Shown here piece after piece: positions 40,509 to 64,000 of a stretch of DNA of 64,000 bases. The stretch comes from Eledone cirrhosa (taxonomy: Eukaryota): positions 266,910,001-266,974,000 of the forward strand of contig OZ024740.1 in the NCBI GenBank assembly GCA_964016885.1, given 5' to 3'. Position 1 is the first letter of the stretch. Each line of letters begins with the position of its first letter. The notes beneath the pieces were generated by a model. The model searched no databases. It was not told the DNA's origin and worked only from the letters and a program-made list of their open reading frames with translations. The position numbers and the translations under genes were made by a program.

Positions 40509-40680
40509 TGTATATATATATATATTAATATGTGTAGAAGTAAACACAGTAAACCCGTGTCTAAAATTACGAGGGTAGATTACACCACAAATGTTACATA
40601 TCATTCAACCTGAATCGTATGGGATGTTACAAGATTTCTTACAAGATTTCTCATATATACCATATCAATAACCATTTCAT

Positions 40681-41187: not shown

Positions 41188-41379
41188 AATATTAATATGT
41201 GTAGAAGTAAACACAGTAAACCCGTGTCTAAAATTTGTGGTGTAATCTACCCTCGAAATTTTAAACACGGGTTTACTGTGTTTACTTATACACATATTAA
41301 TATTATAATGGTCAGTAATTATACTTTGAGCTTGTTAATTGCAGGGTATCTATATGAGTTAATAACTCTATATTTTATT

Positions 41380-41439
<60 letters not shown>

Positions 41440-42128: not shown

Positions 42129-42263
42129 GTTGTCTATTTTACAGCATTATTTCCATACTTTCTTCTTTTTATCCTGCTGATACGTGGTCTCACGCTCCCT
42201 GGTGCTATTGATGGCATCAAATACTACATTTATCCAGATATAAGTCGATTAAAAGATTCTCAG
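42129..42263 (+). CDS. slc6a1: GAT1-like transporter, TM5 exon
   Basis: tttcag|...cag|gtttgt; [45 protein letters not shown]; phase 0-0. Confidence 0.93.
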
Positions 42264-42520
42264 GTTTGTTTTATTTCTCTTCAACAACTGTACAGAAATA
42301 TGTTCATTTATGCTTATCCAGACTAGAGGATGACTTCGTCTCTCTGTCTCAATCTCTCTCTCTCTCCCTCTCCCCCCCCTCTCTCTCTCTCTCTCTCTTT
42401 CTCTGTATATATATATATACTTCGAGCGATTAACGGCCTCTAGACTCACCTGATCAATGAAACAATTGTTAATACCTAAAATACCTTGTTGTACAGCCGA
42501 CCATGTTACTCTTCAATCTT

Positions 42521-42647
<127 letters not shown>

Positions 42648-42652
42648 GTATG

Positions 42653-42725
<73 letters not shown>

Positions 42726-42731
<6 letters not shown>

Positions 42732-44205
42732 AAGTAAGTCCTTCATCAGTGACCCTCCAACCGTCCCAGGCATTTCATCGCTTTAAGGGCCATATGCCTC
42801 AGGTTGGTGCGAACAACGGCTAAAAAAAGTCGTTGGGACACGTAAATAAAGGGGACGTTAGGGTAACAAACAAAATGGTTTAAGCAACGGAAAGTGAGAA
42901 GAAATAGACAAGTCCCAGATCTCTATGAATATAAACTCGGTGAAATCGTGAACAAGAGACAAAAGACCATCAAACCTGGTTGAAATGTGAGCAAGGAAGG
43001 AATTTCGCACAGGTCTAACGGGGGGGAAGAAAAAGAAGAAGAAGAAGAAGAAGAAGAAGAAGAAGAAGAAGAAGAAGAAGAAGAAGAAGAAGAAGAAGAA
43101 GAAGAAGAAGGGGGTCTGGTCTACGAATTCGGTAAACATAAGTTTTGTGAAGTCGCAGACGAAAGAGAGAGAGAGAAAAAAATTCCATACCAGCTTGACC
43201 AAGACCGCGCGAGAAAAGAATTACACACAGGTCAAACTTGAAGGAGGAGGAGGAAAGAGGAGGAGGAGAGGTAGTGACAGAGAATGAGTGAGTGAAAGTT
43301 GAGGAGGAGGCTAACAGAGAGAGAGACTGCTAGAAAGTGTAAAAGGTACAAAGAACGAGAAAGGGTAAAAGGTACAAAGAACGAAACAGACGGGTGGCAG
43401 CAGAAGAAAAATTATGTGTAAATATGATAATAATGATGGCTGCGCGTTGCAAATGGTGGTGCATATGAAAAAGTAAGTCCTTCATCGGTGACCCTCCAAC
43501 CGTCCCAGGCATTTCATCGCTTTAAGGGCCATATGCCTCAGGTTGGTGCGAACAACGGCTAAAAAAAGTCGTTGGGACACGTAAATAAAGGGGACGTTAG
43601 GGTAACAAACAAAATGGTTTAAGCAACGGAAAGTGAGAAGAAATAGACAAGTCCCAGATCTCTATGAATATAAACTCGGTGAAATCGTGAACAAGAGACA
43701 AAAGACCATCAAACCTGGTTGAAATGTGAGCAAGGAAGGAATTTCGCACAGGTCTAACGGGGGGGAAGAAAAAGAAGAAGAAGAAGAAGAAGAAGAAGAA
43801 GAAGAAGAAGAAGAAGAAGAAGAAGAAGAAGAAGAAGAAGGGGGTCTGGTCTACGAATTCGGTAAACATAAGTTTTGTGAAGTCGCAGACGAAAGAGAGA
43901 GAGAGAAAAAAATTCCATACCAGCTTGACCAAGACCGCGCGAGAAAAGAATTACACACAGGTCAAACTTGAAGGAGGAGGAGGAAAGAGGAGGAGGAGAG
44001 GTAGTGACAGAGAATGAGTGAGTGAAAGTTGAGGAGGAGGCTAACAGAGAGAGAGACTGCTAGAAAGGGTAAAAGGTACAAAGAACGAGAAAGGGTAAAA
44101 GGTACAAAGAACGAAACAGACGGGTGGCAGCAGAAGAAAAATTATGTGTAAATATGATAATAATGATGGCTGCGCGTTGCAAATGGTGGTGCATATGAAA
44201 AAGTA
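42726..44205. repeat. Tandem dimer of a 739/730-bp unit with internal (GAA)n, embedded in (TA)n
   Basis: atgaaaaagta at 42726, 43465 and 44195; the units are nearly identical except for GAA copy number. Confidence 0.9.
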
Positions 44206-44765
<560 letters not shown>

Positions 44766-44978: not shown

Positions 44979-45333
44979 ATATATATATATAAACATGAAG
45001 TATAAGTCAACATGTTGATTTATACTTCATGTTTATAAATATACTCCGGAGTAAACAGTCCCACCTGCGCACTTCGTCGAGTGCTCTTTCCTGCATACTT
45101 CAGTGTCGGGGATTAACTACACATACTCTAATTAATATATATATTGATATATATTATTTCCGAAGAAGATGGTATGATTGATCGAACCCGTATATTGTGT
45201 CTGATAGTATACAGTTCTCTAACTGCTATAGATCAGTCAATATATCAATATGATCAACCCTCCGAAACGACCGTAAAACAATGAATGAAATATGTAAAAT
45301 AACTTGCCTATGTTACTAAAAAAATAAAACTAA

Positions 45334-45405
45334 GGTTCCAGCGTGTTTCGAACTCACGATCTTCTGCGTGTTAAGCAGATGTGATAACCACTATACCATG
45401 GAACC
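45334..45405 (-). pseudogene. tRNA-Val(AAC)-like, three substitutions
   Basis: Array consensus body with D-stem, T-stem and variable-loop changes. Confidence 0.75.
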
Positions 45406-45525
45406 AGATAAAGGGCGCCGAACAAATATTGTCTTATCAAACATATTTACATTTGTTTCAATTTAGCGAAACTGAAACAAATGTAAATGTGTTTGATGAG
45501 AATATTTGTTTTAGATCAATCGTCT

Positions 45526-45597
45526 GGTTCCATGGTGTAGTGGTTATCACATCTGCTTTACACGCAGAAGGTCGTGAGTTCGAAACTCGCTGGAACC
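45526..45597 (+). tRNA. tRNA-Val(TAC)
   Basis: GGTTCCA/TGGAACC acceptor, TCTGC-TT-TAC-AC-GCAGA, GTTCGAAAC, downstream T-run. Confidence 0.88.
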
Positions 45598-46853
45598 TTA
45601 GTCTCGCTCTTTTATTTTTTTTTCTCAGTTGTGTTGTATTTGTCAGAATCTCCCATATTTCCTCTATTTATCTCTTCTATAATTTCTATATCCAGTGTTT
45701 TTTACTTTTCTAATGCTGGAACTGCTGACCTAATTTATCAAAAAATACTTGTTGTAGAATAGGTGACGAATTGGCAGTGTCGTTACAACGTCAGATAGAA
45801 TGTTTAAATAAAAAAAGTACCAGTATAGTACTGTGGTCGATTGATTTTTCCTTTCTATGTCTTTCACATTTCCTCTATCCCACTTTCTTTCTCTGAAAGA
45901 AATCTGCTGTTCTCCGACCCGGAGAGGGAAGGGCTCCGCCAGGCCTAAAATATCCAAGAATCGCCGTACGTCAATAGAGCGTCCCTACTACTCTCTCAGG
46001 AGTTACAGGACCATACCATACTTGATGATAAAAATATGTATCCGTTAATATCATAGTACTTACATAGTTAATCAATTGCTTCTAAATTTATACAACTTTC
46101 ACTAAATTGAAAGTAATATGAACGTGTTTAATAAGGCAATATATGATAGGGGGCTACTGTTTGGTTCCATGTTGTACTAAACTAGCAAGATGTCGTGGGT
46201 TCGATATTGACTGCAATCACTCTTATTATACAATTTAAAAAAAAAAAAAAAACTTTTTATTTACATCTAAAGATGGTTACTATTGTTTCGAAAATTTTGA
46301 AATTATTGAAATATACGTTATATAGTTTTAGGATTAAAAATTAAATACATTCCATCCTAGGTTCCAAAATAGAACTCAATTATAGACAGGGTTGCTTAAA
46401 TGTATGCTGAACAACTATATTCATAATTTAGAACTAAACTGATATTTATAAACATATTCAATTTTATAAACTGTCACACTAACTTTTCTGGATTGTACAG
46501 AATATAAATTCCAAAGTCACAAGATACATATAGAATGAAATTAATTAATAAAATGACTGCGTTTGGTTCCATTGAGAAGTGGGTTAAATTCGTGTTTGTT
46601 AGAGGCTCAATTATTTATTCAGGCTACCTAGTCGATAATTTCCATATTCAGTGGCGCATAATATTAATTATAGTTGAATTGATCTGAGCTGTGTCATACA
46701 ACAGTACAAGAATTAGATATTAAATATAAGTAACACCTCATTATCATTAGATGGTTAATCAACTGTTTCTAAATTTCCACATCTTTTTTTAAACAAATTT
46801 AAACAAATGTAAATGTGTTTGATGAGGCAATATTTGTTTTAAAGCAATCGTGT

Positions 46854-46925
46854 GGTTCCATGGTGTAGTGGTTATCACATCTGCTTAACACACAGATGGT
46901 CGTGAATTCGAAACTCGCTGGAACC
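46854..46925 (+). pseudogene. tRNA-Val(AAC)-like, degenerate
   Basis: Anticodon-stem mismatch and altered B box (gaattcg). Confidence 0.75.
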
Positions 46926-47068
46926 TTTGGCTCTCCTCTTCTTTTTCCTATACTTTCAGAAAAAAAAGTAACCATCTTTAGCTGTAAATAAAATATATTT
47001 TTTTCTAAATTAAAATTGTATAATATGTGTGATTGCACAGAATATTGAACACACGGCAATTTGTCTAA

Positions 47069-47140
47069 GGGTCCAGCGAGTTTCAAACTCATGACCGTCT
47101 GGGTGTTAAACAGATGTGATAACAACTACACAATGGAACC
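47069..47140 (-). pseudogene. tRNA-Val-derived pseudogene
   Basis: Multiple stem mismatches; further relics at ~46163 and ~47435-47506. Confidence 0.7.
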
Positions 47141-47903
47141 AGCAAATGGCTTCAAAACAAATATTGGCCTATCAAACACATTTACATTTGTTTCAATTTA
47201 GCGAAAGATGTGGAAATTTAGAAGCAGTTGATTAACCATCTAATTATAATGAGGTGTTACTTATATTTAGTATCTTATGCTGGTAATCATGTATGAAGCA
47301 GGTCAGAACAATTATAGCATAGGTAAATATATACACCACTGTATATTAGAATTATCGATTGGATAGATGGAATAAACATCTGAGCATCTCAGAATCACGA
47401 CACAACAGAACTTAAATTAAATGAAAAAAAATGGGGTTCCACCAATATTCGAACACACGAACATCTGCGTATAAAACAGACGTAATAAACACTACATAAT
47501 GTAACCAATCGCGGTACTTTTTATCGAATAATTTTCTTTTACACATATATTAGGATTTTGAAATATTTTATCTTGACTAATATTTATAAGTATAGTCTAG
47601 ACTTAGAAAAGCTAGTAACCAAAGGGTTGCATCCTAACAAATATTGCCTTATCAAACACGTTTACGTTTCTCCCAATTTAGTGAAAGTTGTATCAGTTTG
47701 GAGTCAGTTGATTAACAATGTAGATACAATGTTATGAATGGTTGCGTCAAGTACTTATGTAAAAGCCAGGTCAGCACAATTCCAACATTGGTAAAATATA
47801 CAGTACTGGATATAGTCTTCTGACTAACTACTCAGAAGAAATATCTGAGATTCTATCAAACACAACACAATATGAAATAGAAGGAAAAAAAGAAGCATAT
47901 AAA

Positions 47904-47975
47904 GGTTCCAGCGAGTTTCGAACTCACGACCTTCTGCGTGTAAAGCAGATGTGATAACCACTACACCATGGAACC
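47904..47975 (-). tRNA. tRNA-Val(TAC)
   Basis: Intact cloverleaf, downstream T-run. Confidence 0.88.
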
Positions 47976-48096
47976 AGATGATTGCTTCGATCAAATATTG
48001 TCTTATCAAACACATTTACATTTGTTTTAATTAAGTAAAATTGAAACAAATATAAATGTGCTTGATGAGGCAATATTTGGTGGACAGCAAGCGTAT

Positions 48097-48168
48097 GGTT
48101 CCATGGTGTAGTGGTTATCACATCTGCTTCACACGCAGAAGGTCGTGAGTTCGAAACTCGCTGGAACC
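48097..48168 (+). tRNA. tRNA-Val(CAC)
   Basis: Same body, loop TT-CAC-AC. Confidence 0.85.
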
Positions 48169-48549
48169 TTACTTTCGCTCTTTTATTTTATTTTCTCAGT
48201 TGTGTTTTATTTGTCAGCATCTCACATATTTCCTATATCTATCTCTTCCATTATTTCTAATCCCGCCGAGGTTGACTTTGCCTTTTATCCTTACGGGGTC
48301 GATGAAATAAAGTACCAGTAATGCAATGGGTAATTGCTGGCCTTGTGCCTAAAGTAGAGACAATTATTTCTATATCCAGTGCTGCTTAGTTTTCCAATGA
48401 TGGAAAACTTTAGCTCTTCTCCCTTTTTTAAAATACTTTAAAAACAAAAGGAAGCATCTTTAGATGTAAATGAAATATTATTTTTTTAAATTAAAATTTA
48501 ATATTAAGTGTGATTATAACGAATATTGAACTCCCGACAATTTGACTGA

Positions 48550-48621
48550 GGTTCCAGTGAATCTGAAACTCATGACCTTCTGTGTGCTAAGCAGACGGGA
48601 TAGCCACTACACTATGGGAGC
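48550..48621 (-). pseudogene. Val-derived tRNA pseudogene with AGC anticodon (repeated at ~50204, 51742, 53292, 54941, 56489, 56693, 59040)
   Basis: Consensus gctcccatagtgtagtggctatcacgtctgc-tt-AGC-ac-acaga...gtttgagac...tggaacc; acceptor mismatches and broken TTCG. Confidence 0.8.
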
Positions 48622-48763
48622 AATTACGGTCCATTTTATCGAATAATTTTCTGTTACAGATATCTTGTTATTTTGAATATTTTTATCTTGACTAATATTT
48701 ATATGTATAGTCTAGACTTAGAAAAGCTAGTAACCAAAGGGTTGCATCCTAACAAATATTGCC

Positions 48764-49289
48764 TCGCGATATATCAACGACTATCTATAGGTTAGCGAAT
48801 TTCTTCAATTTTTGTTAACGACAAAGTATGATTTTCAAATTTGATTGTTATTTCTAGCAGTTCCAAAAACAGCGTAGAACCTCTTTGGCTGGCTAATCTT
48901 TTTATATTTGGAAGTGTTTAAATACGGAAACTCTATAGATAATGAACACAACCACAAGGATATAGTCCCAACGTGGAAGAGCTTAACTCTCACTGTCATC
49001 GCCTCCATCACTCTCGCCCTCCCCCATCTTTCTGTATGGTGAAAAAATGGGGTACCACATGTTGGCCTCCCCACAGCCCGGGCGGACAGAATGGAGAAGG
49101 CGTTTTCCCGGAGGTTAGTAAGGAATATGCACTGGAAGAGCCATTCTAACTCCGAGGCCCAACCCTGCGTCTAGCCAGCTCAGCGCCAATTGTGGTGCGT
49201 AGGGAAGTAGCCCTAGAGCCAAGTACACCAGAAGTCTCTACTGCCGAGGGCACGACCGCAAACCTGTCGTAGAGGGATCGGTTCTTGCC
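48764..49289. other. Unidentified ~526-bp insert present in array units 2-8
   Basis: Flanked by a ttgcc direct repeat; empty site atattgccttatcaaacacg at 47641-47660. Confidence 0.75.
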
Positions 49290-49563
49290 CTGTCAAACAC
49301 GTTTACGTTTCTCCCAATTTAGTGAAAGTTGTACAAATTTAGAAGCTGTTGATTGACAATGTAAATACAACGTTATGAATGGTTACTAATATTTAGCATC
49401 TACGTCAAGTACTTTTGTCAAACCCAGGTCAGCACAATTCCAACATTGGTAAAATATACAGTACTGAATATAGTAATAGACGGGAAGTTAGTCAGAAGAA
49501 ATATCTGAGATTCTATCAAACACAACACAATATGAATTAGAAGGAAAAAAATAAGCATAAAAA

Positions 49564-49635
49564 GATTCCAGCGAGTTTCGAACTCACGACCTTCTGCGTG
49601 TAAAGCAGATGTGATAACCACTACACCATGGAAAC
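49564..49635 (-). tRNA. tRNA-Val(TAC), acceptor pair 2:71 mismatched
   Basis: GTTTCCA/TGGAATC. Confidence 0.7.
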
Positions 49636-49744
49636 AGATAAAATATTGTCTTATCAAACACATTTTCATAGGTTTTAATAAAGTGAAATTGAAACAGATA
49701 TAAATGTGCTTGATGGGGTAATATTTGGTGAACAGTAAACGTAT

Positions 49745-49816
49745 GGTTCCATGGTGTAGTGGTTATCACATCTGCTTCACACGCAGAAGGTCGTGAGTTC
49801 GAAACTCGCTGGAACC
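49745..49816 (+). tRNA. tRNA-Val(CAC)
   Basis: Intact cloverleaf. Confidence 0.85.
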
Positions 49817-51205
49817 TTACTTTCGCTCTATTATTTTTTTTTATCAGTTGTGTTTTATTTGTCAGCATCTCACATATTTCCTTTATCTATCTCTTCCATT
49901 ATTTCTAATCCCGCCGATGATGACTTTGCCTTTCATCCTTACCGGGTCGATAAAATAAAGTACAGGTAATGCACTAGGTAAAATTGCTGGCTTTGTGCCT
50001 AAAGTAGAAACAACTATTTCTATATCCAGTGTTGTTTACTTTTCCAATGATGGAAAATTTTAGCCCTTCTTCCTTTTTTCAATTACTTTAAAAGCAAAAG
50101 GAAGCATCTTTAGATGTAAATGAAATATTTTTTTTATTTTTAAATTAAAATTTAATATTAAGTGTGATTATACCGAATATTGAACTCCCGACAATTTGAC
50201 TAAGGTTCCAGTGAGTCTCAAACTCATGACCGTCTGTGTGCTAAGCAGACGTGATAGCCACTACACTATGGGAGCAATTACGGTCCAGTTTATCGAATAA
50301 TTTTCTTTTATACATATATTTTGATTTTGAATTTTTTTATCTTGACTAATATTTATATGTATAGTCTAGACTTAGAAAAGCTAGTAACCAAAGGGTTGCA
50401 TCCTAACAAATATTGCCTCGCGATATATCAACGACTATCTATACGTTAGCGAATTTCTTCAATTTTTTTTTAACGACAAAGTATGATTTTTAAAGTTGAT
50501 TGTTATTTCTAGCAGTTCCAAAAACAGCGTAGATCCTCTTTGGCTGGCTAATCTTTTTATATTTGGAAGAGTTTAAATACGGAAACTCTATATATAATGA
50601 ACACAACCACAAGTATAGGGTCCGAACGTGGAAGAGCTGAACTCTCACTGTCATCGCCTCCATCACTCTCGCCCTCCCCATCTTTCTGTATGGTGTAAAA
50701 ATGGGGTCCCACGTGTTGGTCTCCCCACAGCCCCGGCGGACAGAATGGAGAACGCGTTTTCCCGGAGGTTAGTAAGGAAGATGCACTGGTAGAGCCATTC
50801 TAACTCCGAGGCCCAAACCTGCATCTAGCCAGCTCATCGCCAATTGTGGTGCGTAGGGAAGTAGCCCTAGGGCCAAGAACACCAGAAGTCTCTACTGCCG
50901 AGGACACGACCGCAAACCTGTCGTAGAGCGATCAGTACTTGCCCTGTCAAACACGTTTACGTTTCTCCCAATTTAGTGAAAGTTGTATAAATTTAGAAGC
51001 TGTTGATTAACAATGTAAATAAAACGTTATGAATGGTTACTAATATTTAGCATCTACGTCAAGTACTTTTGTCAAACCCAGGTCAGCACAATTCCAACAT
51101 TGGTAAAATATTCAGTACTGGATATAGTAATCGACGGGAAGTTAGTCAGAAGAAATATCTGAGATTCTGTCAAACACAACACAATATGAATTAGAAGCAG
51201 ATAAA

Positions 51206-51277
51206 GGTTTCAGCGAGTTTCGAACTCACGACCTTCTGCGTGTAAAGCAGATGTGATAACCACTACACCATGGAACC
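51206..51277 (-). tRNA. tRNA-Val(TAC), one acceptor mismatch
   Basis: 3' strand reads TGAAACC. Confidence 0.72.
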
Positions 51278-51398
51278 AGATGATTGCTTCGAACAAATAT
51301 TGTCTTATCAAACACATTTACATTTGCTTTAATTTAGTGAAATTGAAACAAATATAAATGTGGTTGATGAGGCAATATTTGGTGAACGGTAAACGTAT

Positions 51399-51470
51399 GG
51401 TTCCATGGTGTAGTGGTTATCACATCTGCTTAACACGCAGAAGGTCGTGAGTTCGAAACTCGCTGGTACT
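51399..51470 (+). tRNA. tRNA-Val(AAC), acceptor stem damaged
   Basis: 3' strand reads TGGTACT. Confidence 0.65.
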
Positions 51471-52755
51471 TTAATATCGCTCTATTATTTTTTTTTCCTC
51501 AGTTATGTTTTATTCGTCAGCATTTCACATATTTCCTCTATCTATCTCTTCCATTATTTCTATATCCAGTGTTGTTTACTTTTACAATGACGGAAAACTT
51601 TAGCTCTTCTTCCTTTTTTCAAATACTTTAAACACAAAAGGAAGCATTTTTAGATGTAAATGAAATATTATTGTTTTTTTAATAAAAATTTAATATTAAG
51701 TGTGATTATACTGAATATTGAGTTCCCGAATTTTTTACTAAGGTTCCAGTGAGTCTCAAACTCATGACCTTCTGTGTGCTAAGCAGACGTGATAGCCACT
51801 ACACTATGGGAGCAATTACGGTCCATTTTATCGAATAATTTTCTTTTATACATATATTTTGATTTTGAATTTTTTTATCTTGACTAATATTTATATGTAT
51901 AGTCTAGACTTAGAAAAGCTAGTAACCAAAGGGTTGCATCCTAACAAATATTGCCTTGCGATATATCAACGACTATCTAGACGTTAGCGAATTTCTTCAA
52001 TTTTTTTTTAACGACAAAGTATGATCTTTAAATTTGATTGTTATTTCTAGCAGTTCCAAAAACAGCGTAGAACCTCTTTGGCTGGCTAATATTTTTATAT
52101 TTGGAAGTGCTTAAATACGGAAACTCTATAGATAATGAACACAACCACAAGGATATAGTCCCAACGTGGAAGAGCTGAACTCTCACTGACATCGCCTCCA
52201 TCACTCTTGCCCTCCCCATCTTTCTGTATGGTGAAAAAATGGGGTCCCACGTGTTGGTCTCCCCACAGCCCCGGCGGACAGAATGGAGAAGGCGTTTTCC
52301 CGGAGGTTAGTAAGGAATATGCACTGGAAGAGCCATTCTAACTCCGAGGCCCAACCCTGCGTCTAGCCAGCTCAGTGCCAATTGTGGTGCGTAGGGAAGT
52401 ACTCCTAGAGCCAAGTACACCAGAAGTCTTTACTGCAGAGGGCACGGCCGCAAACCTGTCGTAGGGCGATCGGTTCTTGCCCTGTCAAACACGTTTACGT
52501 TTCTCCCAATTTAGTGAAAGTTGTATAAATTTAGAAGCTGTTGATTAACAATGTAAATACAACGTTATGAATGGTTACTAATATTTAGCATCTACGTCAA
52601 GTACTTTCGTCAAACCCAGGTCAGCACAATTCCAACATTGGTAAAATATACAGTACTGGATATAGTAATCGACGGGAAGTTAGTCAGACGAAATATCTGA
52701 GATTCTATCAAACACAACACAATATGAAATAGAAGGAAAAAAAGAAGCATATAAA

Positions 52756-52827
52756 GGTTCCAGCGAGTTTCGAACTCACGACCTTCTGCGTGTAAAGCAG
52801 ATGTGATAACCACTACACCATGGAACC
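52756..52827 (-). tRNA. tRNA-Val(TAC)
   Basis: Intact cloverleaf. Confidence 0.88.
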
Positions 52828-52948
52828 AGATGATTGCTTCGATCAAATATTTTCTTATCAAACACATTTACATTTGTTTTAATTTAGTGAAATTGAAACA
52901 AATATAAATGTGCTTGATGAGGCAATATTTGGTCGACAATTAATGTAC

Positions 52949-53020
52949 GGTTCCATGGTGTAGTGGTTATCACATCTGCTTAACACGCAGAAGGTCGTGA
53001 GTTCGAAACTCGCTGGAACC
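52949..53020 (+). tRNA. tRNA-Val(AAC)
   Basis: Intact cloverleaf, loop TT-AAC-AC. Confidence 0.85.
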
Positions 53021-54291
53021 TTAGTCTCGCTCTATTATTTTTCTTTTCTCAGTTGTGTTTTATTCGTCAGCATCTCGCATATTTCCTCTATCTATCTCTT
53101 CCATTATTTCTATATCCAGTGTTGTTTACTTTTACAATGATGGAAAACTTTAGCCCTTCTTCCTTTTTTCAAATACATTAAAAACAAAAGGAAGCATCTT
53201 TAGATGTAAATGAAATATTATTGATTTTTTAATTAAAATTTAATATTAAGTGTGATTATACCGAATATTGAACTCCCGAAAATTTGACTAAGGTTCCAGT
53301 GAGTCTCAAACTCATGACCTTCTGTGCGCTAAGAAGATGTGACAGCCACTACACTATGGGAGCAATTACGGTCCATTTTATCGAATAATTTTCTTTTATG
53401 GATATCTTGTAATTTTGAAATTTTTTATCTTGACTAATATTTATATGTATAGTCTAGACTTAGAAAAGCTAGTAACCAAAGGGTTGCATCCTAACAAATA
53501 TTGCCTCGCGATATATCAACGACTAGCTATACTTTAGCGAATTTCTTCAATTTTTTTTTAACGACAAAGTATGATTTTAAACTTGATGGTTATTTTTAGC
53601 AGTTCGAAAAATAGCGTAGAACCTCTTTGGCTGGCTAATATTTTTATATTTGGAAGTGTTTAAATACGGAAACTCTATAGATAATGAACACAACCACAAG
53701 GATATAGTCCAAACGTGGAAGAGCTGAACTCTCACTGTCATCGCCTCCATCACTCTCGCTTTCCCCATCTTTCTGTATAGTGAAAATTGGGGTCCCACGT
53801 GTTGGTCTCCCCACAGACCCGGCGGACAGAATGGAGAAGGCGTTTTCCCGGAGGTTAGTAAGAAATATGCACTGGAAGAGCCATTCTAACTCCGAGGCCC
53901 AAACCTGCGTCTAGCCAGCTCAGCGCAAATTGTGGTGCCTAGGGAAGTATCCCTAGAGCCAAGTACACCAGAAGTCTTTACTGCAGAGGGCACGACCGCA
54001 AACCTGTTGTAGAGCGATCGGTTCTTGCCCTGTCAAACACGTTTACGTTTCTCCCAATTTAGTGAATGTTGTATAAATTTAGAAGCTGTTGATTAACAAT
54101 GTAAATACAACGTTATGAATGGTTACTAATATTTAGCATCTACGTCAAGTACTTTTGTCAAACCCAGGTCAGCACAATTTCAATATTGGTAAAATATACA
54201 GTACAGGATATAGTAATCGACGGGAAGTTAGTCAGAAGAAATATCTGAGATTCTATCAAACACAACACAATATGAAATAGAAGCATATGAA

Positions 54292-54363
54292 GGTTCCAGC
54301 GAGTTTCGAACTCACGACCTTCTGCGTGTAAAGCAGATGTGATAACCACTACACCATGGAACC
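54292..54363 (-). tRNA. tRNA-Val(TAC)
   Basis: Intact cloverleaf; the downstream T-run region is partly deleted. Confidence 0.85.
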
Positions 54364-54483
54364 GTTTATTGCTTCGATCAAATATTGTCTTATCAAACAC
54401 ATTTTCATAGGCTTTAATTTAGTGAAATTGAAACAAATATAAATGTGGTTGATGAGGCAATATTTGGTGAACAGTAAACGTAT

Positions 54484-54555
54484 GGTTCCATGGTGTAGTG
54501 GTTATCACATCTGCTTCACACGCAGAAGGTCGTGAGTTCGAAACTCGCTGGAACC
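54484..54555 (+). tRNA. tRNA-Val(CAC)
   Basis: Intact cloverleaf. Confidence 0.85.
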
Positions 54556-55955
54556 TTACTTTCGCTCTATTATTTTTTTTCTCAGTTGTGTTTTATTTGT
54601 CAGCATCTCACATATTTCCTTTATCTATCTCTTCCATTATTTCTAATCCCGCCGAGGTTGACTTTGCCTTTCATCCTTACCGGGTCGATAAAATAAAGTA
54701 CAGGTAATGCACTGGGTAAAATTGCTGGCCTTGTGCCTAAAGTAGAATCAATTATTTCTATATCCAGTGTTGCTTAGTTTTCCAATGATGGAAAACTTTA
54801 GACCTTCTTCTTTTTTCAAATACTTTAAAAGCAAAAGGAAGCATCTTTATATGTAAATGAAATATTTTTTTTATTTTTAAATTAAAATTTAATATTAAGT
54901 GTGATTATACCGAATATTGAACTCCAGACAATTTGACTAATATTCCAATGAGTCTCAAACTCATGACCTTCTTTGTGCTAAGCAGACGTGATAGCCACTA
55001 CACTATGGGAGCAATTACGGTCCATTTTATCGAATAATTTTCTTTTATAGATATCTTGTGAATTTGAATTTTTTTATCTTGACTAATATTTATATGTATA
55101 GTCTAGACTTAGAAAAGCTAGTAACCAAAGGGTTGCATCCTAACAAATATTGCCTCGCGATATATCAACGACTATCTATACGTTAGCAAATTTCTTCAAC
55201 TTTTTTTTAACGAAAAAGTATGACTTTTAAATTTCATTAGTTATTTCTAGCAGTTCGAAAAACAGCGTAGAACCTCTTTGGCTGGCTAATCTTTTTATAT
55301 TTGGAAGTGTCTAAGTACGGAAACTATACAGTTAATGAACAAAACCACAAGGATATAGTCCCAACGTGGAAGAACTGAACTCTCACTGTCATCGCCTCCA
55401 TCACTCTCGCCCTCCCCATCTTTCTGTATGGTGTAAAAATGGGGTCCCACGTGTTGGTCTCCCCACAGCCCCGGCGGACAGAATGGAGAACGCGTTTTCC
55501 CGGAGGTTAGTAAGGAAGATGCACTGGTAGAGCCATTCTAACTCCGAGGCCCAACCCTGCGTCTAGCCAGCTCAGTGCCAATTGTGGTGCGTAGGGAAGT
55601 AGCACTAGGGCCAAGTACATGAGAAGTCTCTACTGCCGAGGGCACGACCACAAACCTGTCGTAGAGCGATCAGTACTTGCCCTGTCAAACACGTTTACGT
55701 TTCTCCCAATTTAGTGAAAGTTGTATAAATTTAGAAGCTGTTGATTAACAATGTAAATAAAACGTTATGAATGGTTACTAATATTTAGCATCTAGGTCAA
55801 GTACTTTTGTCAAACCCAGATCAGCACAATTCCAACATTGGTAAAATATACAGTACTGGATATAGTAATCGACGGGAAGTTAGTCAGACGAAATATCTGA
55901 GATTCTATCAAACACAACACAATATGAAATAGAAGGAAAAAAAGAAGCATATTAA

Positions 55956-56027
55956 GGTTCCAGCGGGTTTCAAACTCACGAGCTTCTACGTGTAAAGCAG
56001 ATGTGATAACCACTACACCATGGAACC
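55956..56027 (-). pseudogene. tRNA-Val(TAC), degenerate
   Basis: TTTG T-loop plus T-stem and anticodon-stem changes. Confidence 0.75.
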
Positions 56028-56148
56028 AGATGATTGCTTCGATCAAATATTGTCTTATCAAACACATTTACATTTGTTTTAATTTAGTGAAATTGAAACA
56101 AATATAAATGTACTTGATGAGGCAATATTTGGTGAACAATAAACGTGC

Positions 56149-56220
56149 GGTTCCATGGTGTTGTGGTTATCACATCTGCTTAACACGCAGAAGGTCGTGC
56201 GTTCGAAACTCGCTGGAACC
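56149..56220 (+). pseudogene. tRNA-Val(AAC), degenerate
   Basis: A14>T and a T-stem mismatch. Confidence 0.7.
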
Positions 56221-56860
56221 TTTGTTTCGCTATATTTTTTTTTTCCTCAGTTGTGTTTCATTCGTCAGCATCTCACATATTTCCTCTATCTATTTTTTCA
56301 ATTATTTCTATATCCAGTGTTGTTTACTTTTCCAATGATGGAAAACTTTAGCTCTTCTTCCTTTTTCCAAATACTTTAAAAACAAAAGGAAGCATTTTTA
56401 GATGTAAATGAAATATTATTTTTTAAAAATTAAAATTTAATATTAAGTGTGATTATACTGAATATTGAATTCCCGAATTTTTTGCTAAGGTTCCAGTGAG
56501 TCTCAAACTCATGACCTTCTGTGTGCTAAGCAGACGTGATAACCACTACACTATGGGAGCAATTACGGTCCATTTTATCGAATCATTTTCTTTCATAGAT
56601 ATCTTGTGATTTTGAAATAATATTTTTTTAAAATTAAAATGTTATAATAATAGTGATTATACCGAATATTGAACTCGCGACAATTTGACTAAGGTTCCAG
56701 TGAATCTCAAACTCATGACCTTCTGTGTGCTAAGCAGACGTTATAACCACTATACCATGGGAGCAATTAGGGTCCATTTTATCGAATCATTTTCTTTTAT
56801 ACATACCTTTTGATTTTGAATTTTTTTATCTTGACTAATATTTATATGTATAGTCTAGAC

Positions 56861-57533
56861 CAAAGGTTCTCAACGGGGGGCATATACACCCCCGGAGGGG
56901 CGTCTCAGAACTCCAGAGGAGGGGGCGTTTGGAGCTTTGTTAGGGAGCGCTGGAAGTCTCTTTATTTTGGTAAGTTTTATAAGCCATATTTGTATGTCTT
57001 TGAGACAGCCAGTGTGAATGCATTTGAATGAGCTTGCAGCCAACATAACTATAGTCTGACCGCAGCTGTTAGCAGATGTGCAGGCATGTCCGGCAATTGA
57101 GACGTTAACCGGTAATTGAGATCCTAAAAATGGAAAAACCCACAGTCAACTGAGTCAAGACACTTTGAGCGCAGCCAGTTAGAATCTTATTTTTCCTTCA
57201 CCGATAACAATGTATTTCATGTATGAAATTATTGACTCAACTGCAACGAGTTAACACTATGTAGATCTATTTTATTCCCTATTGTATAAATAATATTACG
57301 AATAAAAAAAAGAAAAGAAAAAAACAGAAGCGAGTAGCACACACATCTAGGACCACATACAACACATAATCAGATAATACACACGTCTTTGGAATATTGT
57401 TAATCAATTTTTTATTAATCTACTGTTATAAAAATCAGTAGTATATTGAAAAATGGAAAAATAGGGGAGGGCGCGTTTCGTGATTTCGGGGGACAAAAGG
57501 AGGCGTTTGGCCTAAATGGGTTGAGAACCTGTG
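56861..57533. mobile_element. hAT-type MITE inserted in one array unit
   Basis: TIRs caaaggttctcaac / gttgagaacctgtg; 8-bp TSD gtctagac; the other units show the empty site. Confidence 0.9.
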
Positions 57534-58387
57534 GTCTAGACTAAGAAAAGCTAGTAACTAAAGGGTTGCATCCTAACAAATATTGCCTCGCGATATATCA
57601 ACGACTATCTATACGTTAGCGAATTTCTTCAATTTTTTTTTAACGACAAATTATGATTTTAAAATTTGATTGTTATTTCTAGCAGTTCGAAAAACAGCGT
57701 AGATCCTCTTTGGCTGGCTAATCTTTTTATATTTGGAAGTCTTTAAATACGGAAACTCTATAGATAATGAACACAACCACAAGGATATAGTCCCAACGTG
57801 GAAGAGCTGAACTCTCACTGTCATCGCCTCCATCACTCTCGCCCACCCCATCTTTCTGTATGGTGAAAAAATGGGGTCCCACGTGTTGGTCCCCCCACAG
57901 CCCCGGCGGACAGAATGGAGAAGGCGTTTTCCCGGAGGTTAGTAAGGAATATGCACTGGAAGAGCCATTCTAACTCCGAGGCTCAAACCTGCGTCTAGCC
58001 AGCTCAGCGCCAATTGTGGTGCGTAGGGAAGTAGCACTAGGGCCAAGTACACCAGAAGTCTTTACTGCAGAGGGCACGACCGCAAACCTGTCGTAGAGGG
58101 ATCGGTTCTTGCCCTGTCAAACACGTTTACGTTTCTCCCAATTTAGTGAAAGTTGTATAAATTTAGAAGCTGTTGATTAACAATGAAAATACAACGTTAT
58201 GAATGGTTACTAATATTTAGCATCTACGTCAAGTACTTTTGTCAAACCCAGGTCAGCACAATTCCAACATTGGTAAAATATACAGTACTGGATATAGTAA
58301 TCGAGGGGAAGTTTATCAGAAGAAATATCTGAGATTCTATCAAACACAACACAATATGAAATAGAAGGAAAAAAAGAAGCATATAAA

Positions 58388-58459
58388 GGTTCCAGCGAGT
58401 TTCGAACTCACGACCTTCTGCGTGTAAAGCAGATGTGATAACCACTACACCATGGAACC
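58388..58459 (-). tRNA. tRNA-Val(TAC)
   Basis: Intact cloverleaf. Confidence 0.88.
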
Positions 58460-58580
58460 AGATGATTGCTTCGATCAAATATTTTCTTATCAAACACATT
58501 TACATTTGTTTTAATTTAGTGAAATTGAAACAAATATAAATGTGCTAGATGAAGCAATATTTGGTGAACAGTAAACGTAT

Positions 58581-58652
58581 GGTTCCATGGTGTAGTGGTT
58601 ATCACATCTGCTTCACACGCAGAAGGTCGTGAGTTCGAAACTCACTGGAACC
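58581..58652 (+). tRNA. tRNA-Val(CAC)
   Basis: Intact; T stem fully Watson-Crick (gtgag/ctcac). Confidence 0.85.
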
Positions 58653-60055
58653 TTGGTTTTGCTCTTTTATTTTTTTTTCTCAGTTGTGTTTTATTTGTCA
58701 GCATCTCACATATTTCCTTTATCTATCTCTTCCATTATTTCTAATCCCGCCGAGGTTGACTTTGCCTTTCATCCTTACCGGGTCGATAAAATAAAGTACA
58801 GGTAATGCACTGGGCAAAATTGCTGGCCTTGTGCCTGAATTAGAAACAATTATTTCTATATCCAGTGTTGTTTACTTTTCCAATGATGGAAAACTTTAGC
58901 CCTTCTTCCTTTTTTCAAGTAATATAAAAAGAAAAGTAAGCATCTTTAGATGTAAATGAAATATTTTTTTTATTTTTACATTAAAATTTAATATTAAGTG
59001 TGATTATACCGGATAATGAACTCCCGACAATTTGACTAAGGTTCCAGTGAGTCTCAAAATCATGACCTTCTGTGTGCTAAGCAGACGGGATAGCCACTAC
59101 ACTATGGGAGCAATTACGGTCCAGTTTATCGAATAATTTTCTTTTATAGATATCTTGTGAATTTGAATTTTTTTTATCTTGACTAATATTTATATGTATA
59201 GTCTAGACTTAGAAAAGCTAGTAACCAAAGGGTTGCATCCTAACAAATATAGCCTCGCCATATATCAACGACTATCTATACTTTAGCGAATTTCTTCAAT
59301 TTTTTTTTGAACGACAAAATATGATTTTCAAATTTGATTGTTATTTCTAGCAGTTCAAAAAACATCGTAGAACCTCTTTGGCTGGCTAATCTTTTTATAT
59401 TTGGAAGTGTTTAAATACGGAAACTCTATAGATAATGAACACAACCACAAGTATAAGGTCCGAATGTGGAAGAGCTTAACTCTCACTGTCATCGCCTCCA
59501 TCACTCTCGCTTTCCCCATCTTTCTGTATGGTGAAAAAATGGGGTCCCACGTGTTGGTCTCCCCACAGCCCCGGCGGACAGAATGGAGAAGGCGTTTTCC
59601 CGGAGGTTAGTAAGGAATATGCACTGGAAGAGCCATTCTAACTCCGAGGCGCAAACCTGCGTCTAGGCAGCTCAACGCCAATTGTGGTGCGTAGGGAAGT
59701 AGCCCTAGAGCCAAGTACACCAGAAGTCTCTACTGCAGAGGGCACGACCGCAAACCTGTCGTAGAGCTAGCGGTTCTTGCCCTGTCAAACACGTTTACGT
59801 TTCTCCCAATTTAGTGAAAGTTGTATAAATTTAGAAGCTGTTGATTAACAATGTAAATACAACGTTATGAATGGTTACTAATATTTAGCATCTACGTCAA
59901 GTACTTTTGTCAAACGAAGGTCAGCACAATTCCAACATTGGTAAAATATACAGACTGGATATAGTAATTGACGAGAAGTTAGTCAGAAGAAATATCTGAG
60001 ATTCTATCAAACACAACACAATATGAAATAGAAGGAAAAAAAAGAAGCATATAAA

Positions 60056-60127
60056 GGTTCCAGCGAGTTTCGAACTCACGACCTTCTGCGTGTAAAGCAG
60101 ATGTGATAACCACTACACTATGGAACC
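60056..60127 (-). tRNA. tRNA-Val(TAC)
   Basis: Intact cloverleaf (A9 variant). Confidence 0.88.
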
Positions 60128-60248
60128 AGATGATTGCTTCGATCAAATATTGTCTTATCAAACACATTTACATTTGATTTAATTTAGTGAAATTGAAACA
60201 AATATAAATGTGCTTGATGAGGCAATATTTGGTGAACAGTAAACGTGT

Positions 60249-60320
60249 GGTTCCATGGTGTAGTGGTTATCACATCTGCTTCGCACGCGGAAGGTCGTGA
60301 GTTCGAAACTCGCTGGAACC
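60249..60320 (+). tRNA. Val-body tRNA with CGC (Ala) anticodon
   Basis: TCTGC-TT-CGC-AC-GCGGA; the rest is identical to the Val consensus. Confidence 0.7.
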
Positions 60321-60693
60321 TTACTTTCGCTCTATTATTTTTTTAAATCAGTTGTGTTTTATTTGTCAGCATCTCACATATTTCCTTTATCTATCTCTTC
60401 CATTAGTTCTAATCCCGCGAGGATGACTTTGCCTTTCATCCTTACCGGGTCGATAAAATAAAGTACATGTAATGCACTGGGTAAAATTGCTGGCCTTGAG
60501 CCTAAAGTAGAAACTATTGGTCTCCCCACAGCCTCGGCGGACAGAATGGAGAAGGCGTTTTCCCGGAGGTTAGTAAGGAATATGCACTGGAAGAGCCATT
60601 CTAACTCCGAGGCCCAAACCTGCGTCTAGCCAGCTCAGCGCCAATTGTGGTACGTAGGGAAGTAGCCCTAGGGCCAAGTACTCCAGAAGTCTC

Positions 60694-61019
60694 TGTTGTT
60701 AGAAAAAGCTATCTCACTTACCGCTTTTCACAGGCGCCGCTAAATTCCACTGCAGGTTACTCCTCTTCCACGTGCGTCCAACTGCTTAACACCGGGAGCT
60801 GCCCAAAACTCGCGTCCACACCGTGTTCTGGTCACCACTAGAGAGAGGCCCTCTGCTGGCCCTTCCGGTCGAGCATCCTTCCGGCCAAAAGACACTTCCG
60901 GTCGAGCGCTCCCCCGCCTCCGGCCACCGCACGCCACACACCTTCCGGTCGAGCACTCCCAAGCCTCCGGCCACCGAACGCCACTCCATACCCACACGCC
61001 CCTCTGATCTCAAGGATCA
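60694..61019 (-). repeat. Putative 3' LTR with internal cttccggtcgagc repeats
   Basis: Lies between the PPT and the point where array sequence stops; left edge is uncertain by ~3 nt and the partner LTR is not in the window. Confidence 0.7.
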
Positions 61020-62215
61020 ATTTCCCCCTCGTCCCTCTGCATATGAAAGTCTGCTGTCCAGGTCGTTTGTCTACGACTCCGTTGCGATCTTCGTAGCATT
61101 GGGGCAGGGCTCTGGGTTTCCACCTCATCTTGGGTTTCCTCTTCCTCGGAGTCCGTCGACACAGTGATTCTTCTTACATCTAGGACATGACGTGGTACCC
61201 CGTCCACGGACACATTGTTCTTTGAATTTACGGCCGTCACCGTTCCCCTTCCCCATTGAGATGTGCAACGTGCATCTGGCGGCTTAACCCAGACTTCTTC
61301 GCCCACCTGCACGAATGCACTCTCTCTCCCCACTGGCCGTTGTGGTGGCGAGCACGGGTGCCGCCACTCGTATTTGAATACTGCTCTGTCTGGCACCGAT
61401 TCCTTGACCTGTCCAACCCGAGGGGACATATTGTACCAGAACACTGCCTCCATTGGTGAGATATGGCCCCGCTCCGCCATTGCCTTGATCGTCCGGTGGT
61501 GTCGCTCCACGATTCCATTCCCGCTCGGCCTGTGCGCTGCTCTGAAGAAACGGTCCACCTTCCATCCATCGAGCATCTCCCTCAGTGCCTCCGAGCGGAA
61601 CGCTGCGCTGTTGTCCATCAGCAATTCGTCCACAGGGCCCCGCTCCAAGAACACCTCTCTCAACGTCCGCACGATTTCCTCGGCCGTTCCAGTCTTCATC
61701 TCCCTCCATATCGCCATTCGACCTGGTCCACAGTCGACCATCGAGAGGTACGTTCCCTGCCGGTAGTGCGTCACATCCACCGCTAATCGCTTCCAGTCGC
61801 GATCCACCGGGAGGCTTCCCGTTTCGTGTACACCCGGGGCGGGATCAATGGACTGACATCGGACGCAGCCTCTAACCACCACCCGAACACTGTGTCTGCT
61901 AACGTCCGAGTCGATTCTCCTGGCTAGGAACAGGCTCCTATCCACCCCCATGTGGTGCATGTCATGCAACCCCTTCAGGTCTAACTCGGTCAGCCGACAC
62001 ACGGCAGCTATCTCATCCTCTACCTCCTCCGGCGCTTCCATCCAGGCTTTCTTCACTCTAGTTAAGATGTCCGCCCTATTTTTCTCTGGGGGCACGAACA
62101 CTACGCTCAGCTTCAGGTCGAACTCGGTGGCCAGCTCTCCTAACGTTCCCATGCGGCGCTTTATCAGCATCTCCGCCGCGCCTCTCGTTCGCACTCTCTT
62201 CTCACTGGTGAGCAC
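61010..62215 (-). CDS. Gypsy integrase
   Basis: HHCC (HDMHHMG...CVRC), DDE core (AVDVT, MDNSAAF, GNGIVER), GPY/F-like C terminus. Confidence 0.92.
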   Translation of the reverse strand: MLTSEKRVRTRGAAEMLIKRRMGTLGELATEFDLKLSVVFVPPEKNRADILTRVKKAWMEAPEEVEDEIAAVCRLTELDLKGLHDMHHMGVDRSLFLARRIDSDVSRHSVRVVVRGCVRCQSIDPAPGVHETGSLPVDRDWKRLAVDVTHYRQGTYLSMVDCGPGRMAIWREMKTGTAEEIVRTLREVFLERGPVDELLMDNSAAFRSEALREMLDGWKVDRFFRAAHRPSGNGIVERHHRTIKAMAERGHISPMEAVFWYNMSPRVGQVKESVPDRAVFKYEWRHPCSPPQRPVGRESAFVQVGEEVWVKPPDARCTSQWGRGTVTAVNSKNNVSVDGVPRHVLDVRRITVSTDSEEEETQDEVETQSPAPMLRRSQRSRRQTTWTADFHMQRDEGEIDP

Positions 62216-62220
62216 TGATC

Positions 62221-63345
62221 TTACCCATCCGAGTACAGTAGCCGAGTCGGTGCGTATCTAGATGGTGCGCAGCCCCACCGCAGGGCGAGGTTCACCCTTC
62301 TCAACACCGCGTCCAGCTCGGCCACATTGATGTGGCTGCAGTCGTCCTTCTTTCTAAGCCAGGCTGCATCCTCGACCTCAACACCTCCTATCTCCAACGT
62401 GACACCCAGCGCTATGCTGCTGGCATCGCACCATACGGTCCCGCTCTGTGATTTGGGAACGTACCAGCGCCCCCGCACTGGGTCGTCGGCCTTCTCCCTC
62501 CCCACGATCTCCTGCATCAGGGCCACCGTCCTCTCTCCCACTCTGTCACTCCAAGTCACCCCTCCCGCTCGTCTCTTGACATAGCTGCATGCCGTCCGGA
62601 GCCACCCAGCGATCGGGTAGTGACCCACCAGCTTTCCACACACCGAGAAAAGCTCCCGCCTATTCATACTTGGGCCCAGTTCCGGAACTTCGTTTCCCCT
62701 CTGGAACACCAAAACGCCCGTCTTGTCTCGCCGTAGCCTAAGTCCCAGCGCGGCTCCTCCCTCCAATGCTTCTGATGGCTTCGCAGTCAGTCCGTACCTC
62801 CGCAAATGGCTCGTGACCTCCGCCGTCGACACCACCGACTCGTCCACTAGGATGTCGTCAATATAGGAGTTAGTAGCCCACTTTATCTTGTCGGCCCTCC
62901 CCAGAGCGGTCTTGAGGACCGCCGCCATGATCTTCGGTGCGGAGCTCAGCCCGAAACCGAGCCTGGTCAGGCAATATGTCCGGCCCTTATACCTGACCAG
63001 CTGATACCGCCAGAGCTTCTCATCTATATGCAACTGCAAGTAAGCCGACTTTAGATCCACGATCGCTGAACCCCCCGTCATGCGTCTCCACTCACGCAGG
63101 ATTTCCCCACAGACATCCGTGACCTCGCCGCCCGTGTGGCATGACACGTGCTCGTTCAGCTCCCGATAGTCCAGCACCGGCCTCACCTTGCTCTTCGTGG
63201 GTTGCACCACCGCCATCAACGGCAATACTCCGCACTTCACCTCCTCCTTCCAGGGAAGCAGTATGCCCTCTTCGATCCATCTCTCTACTTCTCGCTCGAA
63301 CTCGCTCCTAGCGTTTCCCTTCAATGTGTGTTGATAGCAGCCCAC
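62221..63345 (-). CDS. Gypsy reverse transcriptase + RNase H (frameshifted at both ends)
   Basis: RPVLDYRELN, VDLKSAY, LGFGL, YIDD, WCDASS, HINVAEL. Confidence 0.92.
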   Translation of the reverse strand: MGCYQHTLKGNARSEFEREVERWIEEGILLPWKEEVKCGVLPLMAVVQPTKSKVRPVLDYRELNEHVSCHTGGEVTDVCGEILREWRRMTGGSAIVDLKSAYLQLHIDEKLWRYQLVRYKGRTYCLTRLGFGLSSAPKIMAAVLKTALGRADKIKWATNSYIDDILVDESVVSTAEVTSHLRRYGLTAKPSEALEGGAALGLRLRRDKTGVLVFQRGNEVPELGPSMNRRELFSVCGKLVGHYPIAGWLRTACSYVKRRAGGVTWSDRVGERTVALMQEIVGREKADDPVRGRWYVPKSQSGTVWCDASSIALGVTLEIGGVEVEDAAWLRKKDDCSHINVAELDAVLRRVNLALRWGCAPSRYAPTRLLYSDG

Positions 63346-63478
63346 TTTGGTCTTCAGTGTTCGTGGTTCTCCCTTCCAGTACCACTCAACAACCCATCGC
63401 TGCCCATCAAATACGGTCTTGAAGTCTTTGTCTTATACAGTGTAAGCGGGATATTCCTCCTCGTGGGCCTTCTGGTTC

Positions 63479-64000
63479 TCATGACGTACTCACAGCGCAT
63501 ACCGATGCAGCGGCGCCAAACGACACACCGACATTGTTCACCGTGACGCCCCCTAGACGGCCAATCGCGTCCATGCCCATAACCACGCCGATCCCATCCA
63601 CCACATTGTCTACCACGATGGCGGAAAGCCTTATCCTCCTTCCCTGTACCGCTATTTCCATCTCGCTGCGATCTCGGCATTCAATTTTCCTGCCGTCGAC
63701 TGCCCTTACGCTGCTCTTCCCTCCCCACCTCTGCGCCACCCCCGCGGTCACCAGTGTCGTCGTACAGCCCGTATCCACGAGGGCTCGCTGTGGCTTCCCC
63801 CTCGCGAAGACTTCCACCACGGGCAGCGCCGCTACTCGTAAGGGGAAACTACCGGCGCAGTAGTTCCCCTTGGATCGTTTCCCTGGTCGCAGTTAGTAGC
63901 GATGTGGCCTGGTCGCTTACACCGGTAGCAAATTATCTCCGGCTTCGACTCTCTACAGTCTCTAGCCATGTGCGGGCCCTGGCACCGAAAACAGCGCCCC
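63479..64000 (-). CDS. Gypsy gag zinc knuckles and aspartic protease (partial, frame change between them)
   Basis: CFRCQGPHMARDC and CYRCKRPGHIATNC at ~63890-63995; ALVDTGC...MGMD in 63479-63820. Confidence 0.88.

Follow-up and report, generated by a model that had tools for sequence, protein, structure and literature searches.

The window analyzed here is a stretch of 64,000 nucleotides (nt) from the cephalopod Eledone cirrhosa (C1:266910001-266974000 of the 3.0-Gb assembly), and it contains the beginning of a long tandem array of valine-type transfer RNA (tRNA) genes within an intron of an SLC6 (GAT1-like) gene. The array is probably a birth-and-death system of tRNA genes (tDNAs) that has grown by unequal crossing-over and segmental duplication, and in which single changes at base 34, i.e., the first or wobble position of the anticodon, convert copies among the three valine isoacceptors. 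Its pattern is likely the ordinary outcome of tandem amplification and single-base anticodon changes and requires no special invention. The window was examined together with 20 kb upstream and 180 kb downstream (264 kb), and positions beyond 64000 are given in extended window coordinates. ARAGORN recognized 187 genes in this region, all of them located between 45333 and 193599 (~148 kb) and arranged as 91 divergent pairs. Their anticodons are TAC (86 genes), AAC (56), CAC (40), CCC (2), AAT (2), and CGC (1); apart from the CCC, AAT, and CGC copies, all genes (182 of 187) carry a valine NAC anticodon with A35 and C36. The original prediction, which was made from the window sequence, had described a tandem array of eight units; the tandem arrangement holds, but the window includes only about the first tenth of the array, and the remainder continues to position 193599.

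The change of isoacceptors within the array was traced on a tree of the 91 units, which was calculated from the spacer and 350 nt of flank per side after removal of the tRNA bodies. On this flank-only tree, the right genes need 6 changes between AAC and CAC compared to a mean of 26-28 after shuffling (0 of 500 shuffles were as low), and 5 to 6 changes in the CAC and AAC groups are already forced by the starred branches alone. In the left genes, 4 changes from TAC to CAC or AAC are required. Genes with homologous flanks accordingly differ at position 34 while the amino acid is kept, i.e., they exemplify isoacceptor anticodon shifts. A single clade of 41 units contains 34 of the 35 CAC units, and the anticodon pattern mostly goes back to two amplified types of unit (AAC-type and CAC-type), with a few switches in addition. 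The wobble position is not an outlier. Its change scores are 4 for the left genes and 7 for the right genes (all states), and those of sites 40, 41, 42, and 68 are 11, 5, 6, and 6, respectively; sites 40, 42, and 68 thus change as often or more. The claim that repeated wobble switching produced a complete valine decoding set from one ancestor is therefore only partly upheld: one body family, alignable flanks, and wobble changes within the array (6 right, 4 left) speak for it, but the set is mostly the amplification of two types, and the wobble base is no hotter than other sites.

The valyl-tRNA synthetases of Escherichia coli and yeast read A35 and C36 and not base 34. Since valine identity rests on these two positions, a wobble change would not impair charging and, in a highly redundant array, would be close to neutral. 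The CGC copy (60249) had been listed among the right genes, but CGC is not a valine anticodon, and the sisters of this copy read CCC. On the flank tree it groups with the CCC copies at 94305 and 127602 and with one CAC copy sharing G41, and because the CGC and CCC copies are sisters, position 35 was struck twice in one small CAC-type lineage. The copies with CGC, CCC, or AAT have likely arisen as by-products of decay and would be poorly charged.

The building block of the array is a palindromic pair. The upstream regions of the minus- and plus-strand genes are homologous, as a comparison of the flanks revealed, and the pair is therefore an inverted duplication. Blocks of 28-34 kb are duplicated within the array at 98-99% identity, e.g., positions 58849-81624 versus 92907-115647 as one high-scoring segment pair with 99.1%. 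The array is interrupted by a retroelement remnant, and since every ~34-kb higher-order copy includes it, the block duplications are younger than its insertion. An inverted duplication would have produced the pair, and unequal crossing-over and block duplication would have multiplied it; units are copied both one by one and in blocks of ~34 kb. Substitutions of base 34 would move copies between isoacceptors, and redundancy would allow most copies to decay. RNA polymerase III (Pol III) would transcribe the intact minority, as suggested by A and B boxes, a TATA-like element, and T-runs.

With respect to these signals, A- and B-box-like sequences are present in the body by inspection, 89 of the 95 plus-strand genes have the motif TATAAA at position -46, and runs of at least four T residues occur no more than 30 nt downstream of 146 of the 187 genes, i.e., of all 95 plus-strand genes and 51 of 92 minus-strand genes. 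The copies are valine-type tRNA genes with Pol III gene architecture, as boxes and downstream T-runs document. BLAST furthermore detected 78 body-like pieces outside the ARAGORN calls across the array, all on the minus strand and located ~270 nt downstream of a plus-strand gene. These relics represent a third, older valine-derived copy per unit, typically with 11-16 differences from the body, an AGC anticodon, a 5' acceptor strand without pairing, and transitions at each of the four CpGs of the body. The relic at 47068 has 9 differences and reads AAC, and a single relic of the window passes the Rfam tRNA model (36.6 bits). A 204-bp tandem duplication at 56409-56820 doubles one relic.

In the window, ARAGORN found 19 tRNA-like genes between 45333 and 60321, all of which share one 73-nt body (Table 1). 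Eighteen of them are listed as matches of the Rfam tRNA family RF00005 with 47.8-66.3 bits (gathering score, 29), and the gene at 46854 is not among the window matches at the gathering score. From 47903 to 60321 the genes form eight divergent pairs with ~121 nt between the partners, the left gene on the minus strand and the right gene on the plus strand, and direct-repeat families give a unit period of 1.54-1.67 kb, with a single unit of 2.43 kb. The anticodon tally reported for these units, i.e., TAC in all eight left genes and CAC (four), AAC (three), or CGC (one) in the right genes, was confirmed by ARAGORN. The picture of eight units is accurate for the pairs, but it omits a flipped first pair, the solo AAC copy at 46854, and the relic in each unit. 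The body, which had been described as identical over 72 nt, is not: four of the eight left and four of the eight right genes differ from it by 1-4 bases outside the wobble position. Overall, 9 of the 19 window genes match the consensus body outside the wobble base (five TAC, three CAC, and one AAC, designated as perfect in Table 1), and the remaining ten deviate by 1-4 substitutions, several of which affect stems. The first pair (45333-45598) is reversed, its minus-strand gene being AAC and its plus-strand gene TAC, and has a long branch in the flank tree; it may reflect a palindrome-mediated flip at the edge of the array.

The distribution of valine genes elsewhere in the assembly bears on a rival explanation, according to which selection favored recent, repeated wobble changes in a Val(TAC)-type gene, giving rise to a full replacement set that displaced a "canonical" AAC/CAC body. 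This scenario is unlikely, even though several observations are in line with it. A genome BLAST with the body provided 497 first-look candidates, and the exact 33-base core with any wobble base, which also served as a positive control, has 157 matches in the genome. Exact patterns of the vertebrate-type anticodon arm, of the same D-arm with a different anticodon stem, and of the same anticodon arm with a different T-stem start had no match in the genome. By these patterns, the vertebrate-type split between a TAC body and an AAC/CAC body is absent from this genome. The flanks of the main array, of a second array, and of loci on C3 and C5 are alignable at ~70-83%, which indicates a shared and fairly recent ancestor for all valine loci. 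As far as exact patterns reach, the valine bodies of the genome form a single family with a fairly recent common origin, and at least 10 wobble changes are required on the flank tree.

The second array (C1:176748903-176864853) spans at least 116 kb and consists of 1.88-kb three-gene units with a variant-body CAC gene, a degenerate TAC gene, and a perfect AAC gene. The CAC gene has five changes, one of which turns the T-stem wobble pair 50:64 into G-C, and every TAC copy seen in the second array has at least five substitutions. The second array also includes one copy with TGC and copies whose anticodon loop is lengthened by one inserted base. The small clusters on C3 and C5 combine the same body with all three anticodons or with two of them. 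The assembly contains 14 copies of the perfect TAC gene, 12 of them in the main array, which would likely make the latter the main source of tRNA-Val(UAC) in the cell. The downstream flank of a window TAC gene showed 82.6% identity to that of an AAC gene of the second array in BLAST comparisons versus 71.7% to that of a TAC gene, which speaks for repeated switching. The orthology of the window TAC and second-array AAC genes, which is favored by BLAST, was not adopted, because the tree of the individual gene flanks does not resolve it. All valine genes of the genome have T73 as the discriminator base; A73 is usual for the valine tRNAs of yeast and vertebrates.

The baseline of the replacement scenario is not general. 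The original prediction had assumed that AAC and CAC genes of well-studied animals use a body separate from that of TAC genes, and a scan of a metagenome collection for the present D-arm and anticodon arm with AAC or CAC showed that this premise does not hold generally. In 80 loci out of 98 matching stretches, at least 86 full-length Val-AAC/CAC genes of environmental eukaryotes were found, which represent 41 distinct sequences with a wide variety of acceptor stems. T73 is present in 29 of the 41 environmental sequence types, and four types share the GGTTCCA acceptor, with 4-5 other differences. ARAGORN detected 4 TAC genes within the 300-nt flanks of the metagenome loci. At one locus (L035), the TAC and CAC genes are identical except for the wobble base; another (L074) harbors CAC, TAC, and AAC genes on one body within 1.1 kb, with the TAC gene differing at 3 further sites; and a third (L076) comprises nine valine genes in 3 kb. 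Since the vertebrate split of TAC versus AAC/CAC bodies is not general, a shared body is by itself no evidence of recent innovation. The 5' half of vertebrate tRNA-Val-TAC (acceptor GGTTCCA, D-arm, and anticodon stem TCTGC) is presumably nearly the same as that of the window body, which is a lead and not a test. The T-arm differs, the discriminator is T73 rather than A73, and AAC and CAC are also found on this body in the present genome. Moreover, wobble changes are no more frequent than those at several other body sites, most of the pattern is clonal amplification, and nothing shows selection for the switches.

The state of the copies leads back to the birth-and-death array. Among the 187 genes, 28 are perfect (12 TAC, 7 AAC, and 9 CAC) and 39 are variants that keep all stem pairs; 92 have at least one broken stem pair, 17 are changed at near-universal positions, and 11 contain indels. 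Nucleotide diversity (pi, wobble base left out) is 0.048 in the bodies of the left genes and 0.053 in those of the right genes compared to 0.096 upstream and 0.16-0.20 downstream; i.e., the bodies are 2-4 times less diverse than their flanks. Diversity peaks in the 25 nt that border the genes on each side and is low in a patch at the center of the spacer. A comparison of substitution rates in bodies and spacers, proposed as a check of the prediction, came out in its favor, as the bodies evolve more slowly (0.99-1.22 changes per site on the flank-only tree) than the flank columns (1.78). The statement that the bodies are better conserved than their flanks is hence correct with respect to pi (0.048-0.053 versus 0.10-0.20), but the constraint on the bodies is weak, and only 28 of the 187 copies are perfect. 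Strongly diverged immediate flanks have been reported for transcribed tRNA genes in the available part of a preprint (10.1101/661942). The steep diversity of the immediate flanks in the present array may accordingly be a hint of transcription, but it is no proof. The decay of CpG sites (10.5 versus 4.8 substitutions per site elsewhere in the bodies) was considered as a sign of silencing and dropped, because the counts include inherited copies and the observed/expected ratio of CpG in the array is 0.9 (surroundings, 0.71-0.83).

Several points weigh against an array that grew by amplification, was diversified by point changes at base 34, and retained a functional minority. The absence of any other valine body relies on four exact-pattern searches rather than a tRNA scan of the whole genome. 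On the flank tree, a new point mutation of base 34 and an exchange with a neighboring unit by recombination or gene conversion look the same, and the homoplasy at sites 40-42 suggests that neighbors do exchange sequence. The ratio of body to flank rates on the tree is just ~0.6. Furthermore, 120 of the 187 copies look impaired due to broken stems, changes at invariant sites, or indels, and together with the T-run in just 51 of 92 minus-strand genes this means that the array could be largely or wholly silent. The extreme form of this objection is a dead tRNA-derived satellite, i.e., an entirely silent and decaying array, with the functional valine genes located elsewhere. Apart from the impaired copies, it could draw on the relics that have lost all four CpGs in every unit, on the 41 of 92 minus-strand genes without a nearby T-run, and on the silencing of clustered tDNAs in Arabidopsis, as described in the accessible parts of two reports (PMC7544208, PMC12308677). 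We nevertheless regard a dead satellite as improbable. Twelve of the 14 perfect TAC genes reside in this array, and the TAC copies seen in the second array carry at least five substitutions; the bodies, the center of the spacer, and the TATA-like element at -46 are conserved above the level of the flanks; and CpG is not depleted in the array relative to its surroundings.

The palindromes themselves might have consequences for the host gene. Each pair with its spacer and near flanks is predicted to form a near-perfect hairpin of ~165 bp, e.g., at window positions 52700-53080 (-213 kcal/mol; z, -26.8), and the intron RNA of the host gene would accordingly contain about 90 long double-stranded stems. 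It is conceivable, if highly improbable, that the stems of the ~91 palindromes in the pre-mRNA of this neuronal-type SLC6 transporter gene serve as a very large ADAR or small-RNA substrate, that Pol III activity interferes with host transcription, and that the copies with Ala, Gly, or Ile anticodons are expressed as mistranslating tRNAs. The weakest alternative, an over-expansion of a short cluster during assembly or a family of tRNA-derived short interspersed elements (SINEs), has in its favor that highly similar repeats are difficult to assemble and that tRNA-derived SINEs are common in mollusks according to the available part of one report (PMC4758252), but it can practically be dismissed, as the units differ by 1-20%, the higher-order copies are 97-99% and not 100% identical, the same unit type is found at three other loci, and the copies are not dispersed but strictly head-to-tail with fixed spacing, shared unique flanks, and no poly-A tails in the flank listing (target-site duplications were not searched for).

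The location of the array in an intron, as originally predicted, is borne out by SLC6/GAT1-like exons on either side. Three open frames of the window match the Pfam family SNF (profile positions 76-258 of 524), and their closest relatives are octopod SLC6 (GAT1-like) proteins with 77-90% identity. Searches with two octopod SLC6 proteins (tblastn) placed exons at 32161-42323 and found them resuming at 195652-216545 on the plus strand; because of these flanking exons, the complete array is situated inside one intron of ~153 kb. Other repeats were observed in the vicinity. Copies of a retrotransposon of the long interspersed element (LINE) type with endonuclease and reverse transcriptase are present at 10126-28208, upstream of the first SLC6 exon match, including one open frame of 1195 amino acids at 24624-28208. 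Long TA, TC, and GAA microsatellites at 41382-44765, among them a (TA)n stretch of 562 bp, are located immediately upstream of the array start.

Table 1. Valine tRNA genes, relics, and neighboring features of the window (positions in window coordinates; LTR, long terminal repeat; RT, reverse transcriptase).
Feature	Position	Strand	Basis
Val-AAC-like, 3 body changes, part of flipped first pair	45333..45405	-	ARAGORN; Rfam, 47.8 bits
Val-TAC, perfect consensus body	45526..45598	+	ARAGORN
Solo Val-AAC-like copy, 3 changes including G53A (damaged)	46854..46926	+	ARAGORN
Val-TAC, perfect	47903..47975	-	ARAGORN
Val-CAC, perfect body	48097..48169	+	ARAGORN
Val-TAC with G2T and C71T	49563..49635	-	Body alignment
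Val-CAC, perfect body	49745..49817	+	ARAGORN
Val-TAC with G68A, acceptor pair 5:68 broken	51205..51277	-	Body alignment
Val-AAC with A69T and C72T, acceptor stem damaged	51399..51471	+	Body alignment
Val-TAC, perfect	52755..52827	-	ARAGORN
Divergent-pair spacer of 121 nt, homologous halves with TATA-like TATAAA/TGTAAA near -46	52828..52948		Flank listing
Val-AAC, perfect body, sole perfect AAC of the window	52949..53021	+	ARAGORN
Val-TAC, perfect	54291..54363	-	ARAGORN
Val-CAC, perfect body	54484..54556	+	ARAGORN
Val-TAC, 4 changes (C40T, G46C, C56T, T62C)	55955..56027	-	Body alignment
Val-AAC with A14T and A52C	56149..56221	+	Body alignment
Val-TAC, perfect	58387..58459	-	ARAGORN
Val-CAC with G64A	58581..58653	+	Body alignment
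Val-TAC with G9A	60055..60127	-	Body alignment
Valine body with anticodon CGC (Ala by anticodon), CAC-type with A35G and A41G, U3:A70 kept	60249..60321	+	ARAGORN
Example relic, AGC, four CpGs lost, 5' acceptor unpaired	53291..53363	-	BLAST piece, alignment
Full-length window relics	47068-47140, 48549-48621, 50203-50275, 51741-51813, 54940-55012, 56488-56560, 56692-56764, 59039-59111	-	BLAST
Relic piece of 49 nt	47448-47496	-	BLAST
LTR-type retroelement pol remnant (integrase, RT, DUF7047) interrupting the array	61013..63892	-	Pfam rve, RVT_1
Host SLC6 (GAT1-like) exons	32161-32337, 33466-33840, 34085-34222, 42126-42323	+	Pfam SNF, tblastn

The array provides a quantifiable case of the turnover of a tRNA family, in which amplification to hundreds of copies, isoacceptor change at the wobble base, and decay in place can be followed side by side. 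In a cephalopod genome of 3 Gb, a single intron accommodates nearly all of the intact Val-UAC genes, and if the intact copies are expressed, copy number variation in an unstable array would directly alter the supply of valine tRNA. The study also corrects a tempting inference, since the vertebrate division into a TAC-type and an AAC/CAC-type valine body is no general rule.

Both homogeneous tDNA clusters (PMC2888827) and isoacceptor shifts that affect the first base of the anticodon (PMC3923123) have already been documented in the available parts of the literature. In eukaryotic tRNA genes, 39 of 44 isoacceptor shifts affected the first anticodon base, and such shifts are more common where tRNA genes are highly redundant, as stated in the part of the work of Rogers and Griffiths-Jones (2014) that is available (PMC3923123). 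As in the shifts described there, the body and the amino acid identity are kept in the array, and the anticodon is changed by one base, nearly always at position 34. Unlike those shifts, which were recognized between syntenic orthologues of related species, the present ones occur between paralogues of one array and are identified via a flank tree; in addition, all three anticodons (AAC, CAC, and TAC) are represented, and copies were amplified tens of times after their shift.

Literature searches on nuclear tRNA arrays of cephalopods or mollusks returned almost only mitochondrial papers and no description of such an array. The array is a homogeneous tandem tDNA cluster as defined previously (PMC2888827), with a gap of ~121 nt within the pair, gaps under ~1 kb within the unit when the relic is counted, and nearly all genes of the valine type. 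It resembles known homogeneous clusters and arrays, e.g., the human tRNA variable-number tandem repeat at 1q23.3 (PMC4041453) and the Ser/Tyr cluster of Arabidopsis (PMC12308677, PMC7544208), in that many copies for one amino acid are spaced less than 1 kb apart in repeat units. In the accessible parts of these reports (PMC2888827, PMC4041453, PMC12308677, PMC7544208), the copy number is likewise unstable, the genes are mixed with pseudogenes, and their expression is silenced or uncertain. Most clustered pairs were parallel in the available portion of the earlier survey (PMC2888827), whereas the unit of E. cirrhosa consists of a head-to-head palindromic pair plus a relic. Unlike the known tDNA clusters, this array comprises 187 genes, is located wholly in one intron, and contains most of the intact TAC genes of the genome.

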